From UHGV virus genome UHGV-0140160: a DNA stretch of 12,485 nt. One strand, written 5' to 3'. Source of the DNA: a virus. A model generated the notes under the pieces. It searched no databases. It was not told where the DNA came from and saw only the letters and a program-made list of their open reading frames with translations. Below, piece after piece: positions 11,524 to 12,065 of this stretch (position 1 is the stretch's first letter; every line of letters begins with the position of its first letter). The translations under genes and the position numbers were made by a program.

Positions 11524-11551
11524 TTGAATTTTCTAATGTGTTTTGTAGAAT
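11524..11551 (+). promoter_or_regulatory. Sigma70-like promoter candidate (TTGAAT-16-TAGAAT) for the immunity-I-like transcript
   Basis: -35 TTGAAT 11524-11529, 16-nt spacer, -10 TAGAAT 11546-11551. Sequence-based only. Confidence 0.4.
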
Positions 11552-11572
11552 CAAAAACCTAACAATTTGATG

Positions 11573-11601
11573 TTGATCTTCCATGTATTCAGGCTTATAT
11601 T
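11573..11601 (+). promoter_or_regulatory. Second tandem sigma70-like promoter candidate (TTGATC-17-TATATT)
   Basis: -35 TTGATC 11573-11578, 17-nt spacer, -10 TATATT 11596-11601; predicted start near 11608, upstream of the first antisense target pair. Confidence 0.4.
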
Positions 11602-11734
11602 CATGCCGTCGTAGCAAATTCTGCGACCGGGTTTAGCAGCCTGAATACGAATGCGGACAACCGCACATTTCCGATATTGCGGTATTTTTGTGTCCGTAAA
11701 ACCACGTTACGCCCGAATTATGGTGGGGCGTGAT

Positions 11735-11800
11735 GGGGAGGCTTCGGCCTGCTGGTTTCATTCGTGCCAGTCTGCTAACCCCGTCACGTCCTGCCACCCG
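11735..11800 (+). ncRNA. Candidate c4-like antisense immunity RNA (boundaries approximate)
   Basis: Region between two copies of the same target pair. It carries cattcgt (11759-11765), presented in the loop of a CUGG/CCAG hairpin, and ctgctaa (11772-11778). These are complementary to acgaatg and ttagcag, which occur together both upstream (11633-11639 and 11647-11653) and downstream (11802-11808 and 11832-11838, the latter abutting the icd SD GAGG 11838-11841). An AGGC-UUCG-GCCU tetraloop hairpin sits at 11738-11749. Confidence 0.4.
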
Positions 11801-11849
11801 TTTAGCAGCGGGTGCGCAGGTTGTTAAACCTACGAATGAGGCCGTAACT

Positions 11850-12065
11850 ATGGTTAATGCCAATCCTTGCTCTCGCCCGGAATTTATCTGGCGCTTTTAT
11901 TCCTGCACAAAACACACCTATATCAGCGTAATGGCAGCTACTGAGGCTGAAGCACGTTCATTTCTTCCTACAGATCCGTGCATTTTTGCGGCTCGCTTTA
12001 AACTCGATGCTCTGGACGTTTTGACCTACTGGAACCGCCCGATGAACTGCGTGGAGGTGCATTAA
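11850..12065 (+). CDS. icd: Icd-like host cell-division inhibitor, 71 aa
   Basis: ATG 11850 with GAGG 8 nt upstream. Translation MVNANPCSRPEFIWRFYSCTKHTYISVMAATEAEARSFLPTDPCIFAARF fits the Icd-like pattern I recall (F.W.F ... E.EAR ... SFAAR). The track ORF 11730-12065 is the same frame with an implausible 5' extension across the RNA region. Confidence 0.7.
   Translation: MVNANPCSRPEFIWRFYSCTKHTYISVMAATEAEARSFLPTDPCIFAARFKLDALDVLTYWNRPMNCVEVH

Follow-up and report, generated by a model that had tools for sequence, protein, structure and literature searches.

By its sequence, the locus described here is a true copy of the c4 antisense RNA switch of P1-type plasmid prophages: a 77-nt RNA carries two recognition elements that are complementary to two pairs of target sites, one pair on either side of it, and the downstream pair reaches the ribosome-binding site of icd. 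The locus lies toward the 3′ end of the window, by which we mean the whole 12,485-nt stretch of the virus genome UHGV-0140160 that was analysed, and very probably serves a D6/P1-like Escherichia phage-plasmid as a secondary immunity module of the immI type. For the window, the analysis establishes membership in the RNA family, the fold, the complementarity, the co-variation and the order of the genes. Judged from alignments, its allele differs from the P1 and P7 RNAs, yet it is a common natural one that is widespread in public sequences.

The c4 RNA and its duplicated targets

The original prediction started from two short elements that occur as an ordered pair twice on the same strand, with their complements in antiparallel order (cattcgt, then ctgctaa) between the pairs. 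Exact string searches of the window bore out this arrangement: TTAGCAG (a) is found at 11633 and 11802, ACGAATG (b) at 11647 and 11832, CATTCGT (b′) at 11759 and CTGCTAA (a′) at 11772, which gives the order a1–b1 … b′–a′ … a2–b2 on the plus strand, to which all features below belong unless they are symmetric. The predicted spacing of about 185 nt between the copies holds for b (185 nt) but not for a (169 nt). Individual 7-mers are not rare in 12.5 kb: a has three more, unrelated copies at 2403, 5612 and 11329, b′ has an extra copy at 11027 and a′ one at 6174, and b occurs nowhere else in the window. The configuration was therefore tested as a whole, that is, as an ordered pair, with antiparallel complements in between, with the pair repeated and with a total span of at most 320 nt; such an arrangement is found a single time in the window and never in 300 dinucleotide-preserving shuffles, both strands being searched. 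The paired-motif arrangement is real and far above chance.

A scan of the whole window against Rfam at the gathering thresholds returned exactly two matches, RF01695 and RF03163, both at this locus, and thus confirmed by covariance model the C4 family membership that had been proposed for the region. The C4 antisense RNA (RF01695) matches at 11716–11801 with 71.9 bits against a cut-off of 45 (E = 9.1e-13; model positions 1–87 of 87), and the mature form, placed by homology to the annotated P1 misc_RNA, comprises 77 nt at 11722–11798. The c4-a1b1 motif (RF03163) matches at 11595–11647 over the whole length of the model, with 54.6 bits where the gathering score is 46.7 (E = 9.4e-12), and consists of two small hairpins with a1 in the loop of the second. 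Both motifs go back to the definitions of Weinberg et al. 2010 (PMC2864571). Folding of c4 gave an energy of −46.2 kcal/mol (z = −5.4) that none of 200 shuffles equalled, and the minimum free energy (MFE) structure coincides with the centroid: a long closing stem surrounds two hairpins, the same architecture that P1 c4 adopted when folded in parallel. As had been predicted for the first complement, the b′ element CAUUCGU (11759–11765) is displayed in a loop, namely the 9-nt loop of hairpin 2, and the a′ element CUGCUAA (11772–11778) falls within the joining segment on the 3′ side, which is unpaired. No position of b′ has an unpaired probability below 0.7, and the values for a′ are high as well. 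In the alignment with P1 c4, differences are confined to b′, a′ and one stem base. The 5′ processing-site sequence of P1, AAUUAU/GGUGGGG (AAUUAU/GGUGGGGCG, the stroke marking the processing site), is unchanged in the window, as is the 3′ end of P1 c4, ...CCUGCCACC.

Upstream of c4, a1 (UUUAGCAG, 11632–11639, with the core UUAGCAG at 11633–11639) and b1 (ACGAAUG, 11647–11653) are exact complements of a′ and b′, respectively, and match the annotated a1 and b1 of P1, whose record labels their role 'putative'. Downstream of c4, a2 (UUUAGCAG, 11801–11808) is again an exact complement of a′, and b2 (ACGAAUGA, 11832–11839) is a complement of b′; both match the annotated P1 elements. Exact complementarity extends over 7 nt for a and 8 nt for b, and RNAduplex predicts duplex energies of −8.3 kcal/mol for b1, −9.3 kcal/mol for a2 and −11.1 kcal/mol for b2. 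CCCG and CGGG flank a2 and could form a 4-bp stem that would display a2 as a loop. The expected overlap of the downstream target with the icd Shine–Dalgarno sequence is present: b2 abuts and overlaps GAGG (11838–11841), located 8 nt 5′ of the ATG at 11850, by 1–2 nt, and the P1 record describes b2 as 'repression of icd ant translation'.

The MFE fold of the longer segment 11602–11870 pairs a1/b1 with a′/b′. Masking of c4 in cis by a1/b1 was nevertheless dropped as not robust: for the window and for P1 alike, folding of a precursor cut off at the 3′ end of c4 gave the native c4 structure as the MFE, and enforcing this structure costs only 0.7 kcal/mol. Between b1 and c4 lies a nested hairpin, CGGACA..ACCGCA..UGCGGU..UGUCCG, with a U-run (11654–11700), which is conserved in all five aligned phages. 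An intrinsic terminator formed by hairpin and U-run at about 11655–11697 was considered and discarded, as the terminator scan made no call there, and we treat the stretch as a structured spacer that has been conserved.

The putative operon around c4

Two sigma-70-like sites were found by consensus scan. The first, TTGAAT-16-TAGAAT at 11524–11551, has 9 of 12 matches and aligns with P2c4 (P51a) of P1; the second, TTGATC-17-TATATT at 11573–11601, is the positional equivalent of P1c4 (P51b) and aligns with TTGACC/TATAGT of P1, its hexamers being mostly kept in the five aligned phages with one or two substitutions each. Both sites sit at P1 promoter positions and are predicted promoters by consensus match. 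The −35 hexamer of the first is overlapped by a perfect palindrome with 10-bp arms, TTAGAAAATT-N6-AATTTTCTAA (11511–11536), which has no second copy in the window and no counterpart in 200 shuffles, and which lies at the position that the C1 operator Oc4/Op51 occupies in P1 and P7. D6 and 24 of the surveyed loci have related, relaxed palindromes 5′ of c4, regardless of which c4 allele they carry; D6-type loci have a site of this kind, P1-type loci an asymmetric 17-mer. We regard the palindrome of the window as a candidate operator, likely to be bound by a D6-type primary (C1-like) repressor of the element.

Directly 5′ of the promoter-like sites, at the position held by the sim genes in P1 and by repL in D6, lies a complete iteron-type replicon (10329–11486). 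It comprises five tandem 21-bp iteron copies (ATCAACGCTAGCGGGTAA, 10329–10432), an initiator ORF of the Rep3_N/RepB family (10461–11354; Pfam E = 1e-9) with two more copies inside, and three further iterons 3′ of this ORF, of which those at 11361–11379 and 11403–11420 are inverted and that at 11469–11486 is direct.

On the other side of the RNA, icd (11850–12065) codes for 71 aa homologous to the host cell-division inhibitor; the product scores 46.5 bits with NCBIfam NF033153, phage_ICD_like (cut-off 25), and its N-terminal ~50 residues align with P1 Icd. The icd stop codon overlaps the start of the following ORF in the sequence TAATG (12063–12067), and this ORF, anti-repressor-like and running off the window end (12065–12485), carries an ORF6N domain (Pfam PF10543, E = 5e-13). 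Of the icd-ant unit that the original prediction had placed under c4 control, icd is thus present, but the next gene is not ant1/ant2 of P1: compared with P1 Ant1, the product of the ORF proved unrelated, and a coupled ant1/ant2 pair was not found. Its C-terminal stretch LKSKAEILAEMAQMHLEHE is identical to a Rha-family protein encoded 3′ of icd in the plasmid pRHB38-C13_3, while its N-terminus is of the ORF6N type where pRHB38-C13_3 and D6 have a Rha/Roi-type domain; an ORF6N N-terminus on the icd-coupled ORF occurs in none of the other surveyed c4 loci. This pattern suggests that a D6-type protein, the presumed anti-repressor, has had its N-terminal domain exchanged; the anti-repressor function we infer from the position of the ORF and from its homology to the D6-type Rha/Roi-like gene. 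Replacement of Ant1/Ant2 by another protein class is also found in D6-type elements, and a non-Ant gene after icd concerns the cargo of the operon, not membership in the RNA family.

In P1 and P7, c4 is processed from the operon transcript, pairs with a2/b2 and blocks icd together with the coupled anti-repressor (Citron & Schuster 1990, as summarised in PMC12197685 and PMC8198154); according to the summaries in PMC12197685 and PMC8198154, the heteroimmunity of the two phages rests on sequence differences in the complementary elements, and the c4 precursor is cited as a substrate of RNase P (Hartmann et al. 1995, in PMC11143913 and PMC2190699). For transcription, processing, the translational block with its coupling, and immunity specificity in the window, we argue by analogy with these two phages, an analogy supported by homology of the locus to the annotated c4, a1, b1, a2, b2 and icd of P1, as the proposed immI logic had it. 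One or two promoters at about 11524–11601, probably under the control of a repressor bound at the palindrome 11511–11536, would give rise to a single transcript that carries a1/b1, c4, a2/b2, icd and the anti-repressor gene. From this operon transcript c4 (11722–11798) would be cut out, its 5′ end presumably being generated by RNase P as in P1 and P7, whose cleavage-site sequence is identical in the window. The resulting 77-nt RNA would offer b′ in the hairpin loop and a′ in single strand for pairing with a2/b2 on the same or on sibling transcripts, and this pairing would cover the ribosome-binding site of icd and leave icd untranslated. Because the start of the anti-repressor gene overlaps the icd stop, the anti-repressor would remain untranslated as long as icd is silent, and with the anti-repressor blocked lysogeny would be kept. 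Specificity would reside in a few variable bases of a and b: since b of the window matches none of P1, P7 and D6, no silencing by P1- or D6-type c4 is expected, nor any silencing of their targets by the window RNA, and cross-talk with P7, if any, would run via a alone.

Recognition alleles, distribution and rival readings

In a five-phage alignment the c4 region is near-invariant outside a and b, which change in concert at three sites. The window and phage vB_EcoM-813R1 have a = UUUAGCAG and b = ACGAAUG; the corresponding pairs are UUUGACAG and GUUAGUG in P1, UUUAGCAG and GAUUGUG in P7, and UUUGACAG and ACUUACG in D6. Comparison of the complementary elements with P1 and P7 c4 therefore assigns a to the P7 type and leaves b unlike either; of the diverged antisense specificity that had been considered for the locus, the part concerning b stands, as b differs from P1, P7 and D6; a is identical to that of P7. 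RNAduplex energies reflect these assignments: the window b′ forms a duplex of −11.1 kcal/mol with its own target versus −3.2 to −4.3 kcal/mol with the targets of P1, P7 and D6, the cognate a duplex reaches −9.3 versus −5.3 kcal/mol for the heterologous one, and the whole energy matrix is orthogonal between cognate and heterologous pairs.

For a broader view of the alleles, IMG/VR was scanned with the conserved c4 core, with N at the variable positions, which yielded 117 loci; together with the reference phages and the window these make up a survey of 122 loci, from each of which the six elements were extracted. Scored at the free positions only, the recoverable a1, a2, b1 and b2 are all exact complements of their own c4 in 121 of the 122 loci, so that the complementary elements are conserved in related phage-plasmids in the form of a three-site co-variation. 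The loci display 2 a alleles and 7 b alleles, counts that are lower bounds because the conserved core was fixed in the search pattern, and these appear in 12 combinations; that of the window is found in 13 of 122 loci (about 11%). Across the surveyed loci the c4 allele is independent both of the operator class and of the class of the downstream gene, which implies that the module recombines freely. On further c4 specificity types, the papers that our searches reached gave only general statements on P1/P7 heteroimmunity.

The sole inconsistent locus, L030 (IMGVR_UViG_2565956613_000015), lies near a contig end and has b′ and b1 of the window type (ACGAAT), b2 of the P1 type (GTTAGT) and P1-like icd/ant 3′ of them; it may be a natural recombinant whose b2 has no match, in which case partial derepression would be predicted, or else a chimera of the assembly. 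Another locus of that genome, L029, has the P1 b-type. A much more diverged c4 is present in L014 (IMGVR_UViG_2675903633_000003, ~3260–3660), which contributes the seventh b allele (b′ CUUGAAC, b1/b2 GUUCAAG), has a different downstream gene and is complementary at all of its own sites; neither the P1 operator nor the D6 palindrome was found in its upstream region. Eight IMG/VR contigs carry 2–4 c4 loci each (L058/L059, L063/L064, L085/L086, L087/L088, L092–L094, L096/L097, L111/L112 and L116–L119). Co-resident loci never have the full a+b combination in common, the probability of sharing it being 0.116 for a random pair; some share a alone and one pair shares b alone (L116 with GA/GTACAT versus L119 with AG/GTACAT). 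That co-resident loci share at most one element suggests that cross-repression needs both a and b. A further idea is that a and b form an independently assorting two-part code across P1/D6-type backbones, operators and cargos, whose combinations would act as immunity groups and as orthogonal RNA repressors that decide on coexistence or mutual triggering of phage-plasmids; we put this forward tentatively and give it slightly less than an even chance.

The window allele is not unique: phage 813R1 and plasmids of E. coli have an RNA of identical sequence. The 273-nt c4 region is present in 571 plasmids of PLSDB; among 5,426 complete E. coli genomes, 536 (~10%) have it, nearly always on plasmids and in up to five places per genome. 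Among the plasmid and E. coli matches listed, the annotation under the match reads 'Icd-like protein' or is absent, and none has the c4 RNA annotated; it is likewise annotated neither in ON470617 (813R1) nor in CP055626 (pRHB38-C13_3). The window itself is part of an Escherichia phage-plasmid of the D6-like kind, with tail, baseplate and transglycosylase genes that show 86–94% identity to D6 and to many E. coli plasmids. A tail-fibre segment at 140–668 is 86–87% identical to the P2-like phages P88, Wphi and Xuanwuvirus P884B11, and not to P1 or D6, which indicates a mosaic host-range module.

The annotation practice just described bears on a reading in which the region is protein-coding and not an RNA gene. 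A 111-aa ORF with a GTG start (11730–12065) runs in frame with icd, and ON470617 stretches a 138-aa 'Icd protein' CDS (1564–1980 of L003) upstream over the c4 RNA and its targets, so that one of these two could be taken as the actual product. However, the N-terminal extension finds no match in Pfam or NCBIfam, and the match to the Icd family begins only after the ATG at 11850; a strong Shine–Dalgarno sequence with ATG at 11838–11852 is kept in all five aligned phages, and the P1 and P7 records start icd at the equivalent ATG. Moreover, the substitutions among homologues cluster in a and b, where they have compensatory partners, and not at third codon positions. With its extension lacking a family match and the substitutions being compensatory, we rejected the coding reading of 11730–12065, which is almost certainly wrong. 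The module could also be a decayed or silent immI remnant, for instance a redundant second copy in an element with a working immI elsewhere: D6-like elements can hold a second c4-icd region (PMC6799933), several contigs carry 2–4 c4 loci, the window covers only 12.5 kb of the element, and the module adjoins an iteron replicon and not repL as in D6. We nonetheless consider this very unlikely, for none of the six recognition elements is damaged, their complementarity is perfect, and a neutral remnant is not expected to keep complementarity at three sites; the promoter-like hexamers have likewise been preserved, as have the reading frame of icd and the ORF coupled to it, and the RNA is identical to that of 813R1, which was deposited as a phage genome.

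A working c4 might still act mainly in trans, as an exclusion or interference RNA that is directed via its P7-type a at co-resident P1/P7-like elements and not at its own operon. The identity of a with that of P7 fits this idea, and encounters are plausible because ~10% of complete E. coli genomes carry such loci, in up to five places each. Against it, the a2/b2 pair at the ribosome-binding site of its own operon offers c4 perfect targets, and co-resident loci share a or b but never both, one shared element apparently being too little for effective cross-repression. As the principal role this is extremely unlikely, and action in trans would come on top of the main mechanism without replacing it. 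We therefore favour c4 as the antisense regulator of its own icd operon.

What is gained is in part a matter of annotation: a regulatory RNA, its four target sites and the correct icd start can be placed in a phage-plasmid lineage carried by ~10% of complete E. coli genomes, and many P1/D6-like phage-plasmids carry resistance genes. The classic antisense system acquires one more natural specificity allele and no new mechanism. Taken together, survey and allele point to a family of short-duplex RNA repressors, orthogonal to one another, by which the immunity groups of P1/D6-like phage-plasmids could be defined; if each combination corresponds to a separate immunity group, the window allele, P7-type a with ACGAAUG as b, would mark an uncharacterised heteroimmunity group.

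Comparison with the immI regions of related elements

Megablast finds 11588–11956 to be 86–92% identical to the immI regions of P1, P7, D6, SJ46, RCS47 and vB_EcoM-813R1, and the P1 record annotates the full series of elements, Oc4, P2c4, P1c4, a1, b1, the 77-nt c4 RNA, a2, b2 and icd-ant1/2, with which the window can be compared. With the immI regions of P1 and P7 the window has in common an RNA of the same family, length and fold, with b′ in a loop and a′ single-stranded, and the same duplicated targets a1/b1 and a2/b2, with b2 on the icd ribosome-binding site. In all three, c4 lies 5′ of icd, in the window presumably within one transcription unit as in P1 and P7; icd is likewise predicted to be coupled to the next gene, and the promoter-like sites of the window match the promoter positions. 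They differ in the recognition elements, as b is GUUAGUG in P1, GAUUGUG in P7 and ACGAAUG in the window, whose a is of the P7 type and not of the P1 type. Differences also surround the RNA: the upstream operator of P1 is the asymmetric 17-mer C1 operator, whereas the window has a palindrome, and P1 has the sim genes on the 5′ side and Ant1/Ant2 after icd, whereas the window has an iteron replicon and an ORF6N-domain protein in these places.

The closest relatives with respect to the RNA itself are phage vB_EcoM-813R1 (ON470617) and plasmid pRHB38-C13_3 (CP055626), in which the 77-nt c4 and all six elements are identical to those of the window. Their surroundings differ, however: 813R1 has P1-type simB/simC on the 5′ side and Ant1 on the 3′ side, while pRHB38-C13_3 resembles the window in its upstream RepB/Rep3-family gene and its tail-gene neighbourhood but encodes a downstream protein whose N-terminal domain is of the Rha type, in contrast to the ORF6N domain of the window. 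D6 (MF356679), finally, belongs to the same phage-plasmid lineage, with tail and baseplate genes that are 86% identical, and both D6 and the window have a palindromic TTAGAAAAT-type site 5′ of c4 and a non-Ant1 protein after icd. Unlike the window, D6 combines a = UUUGACAG with b = ACUUACG, and its module follows repL, whereas that of the window follows the Rep3-type iteron replicon.
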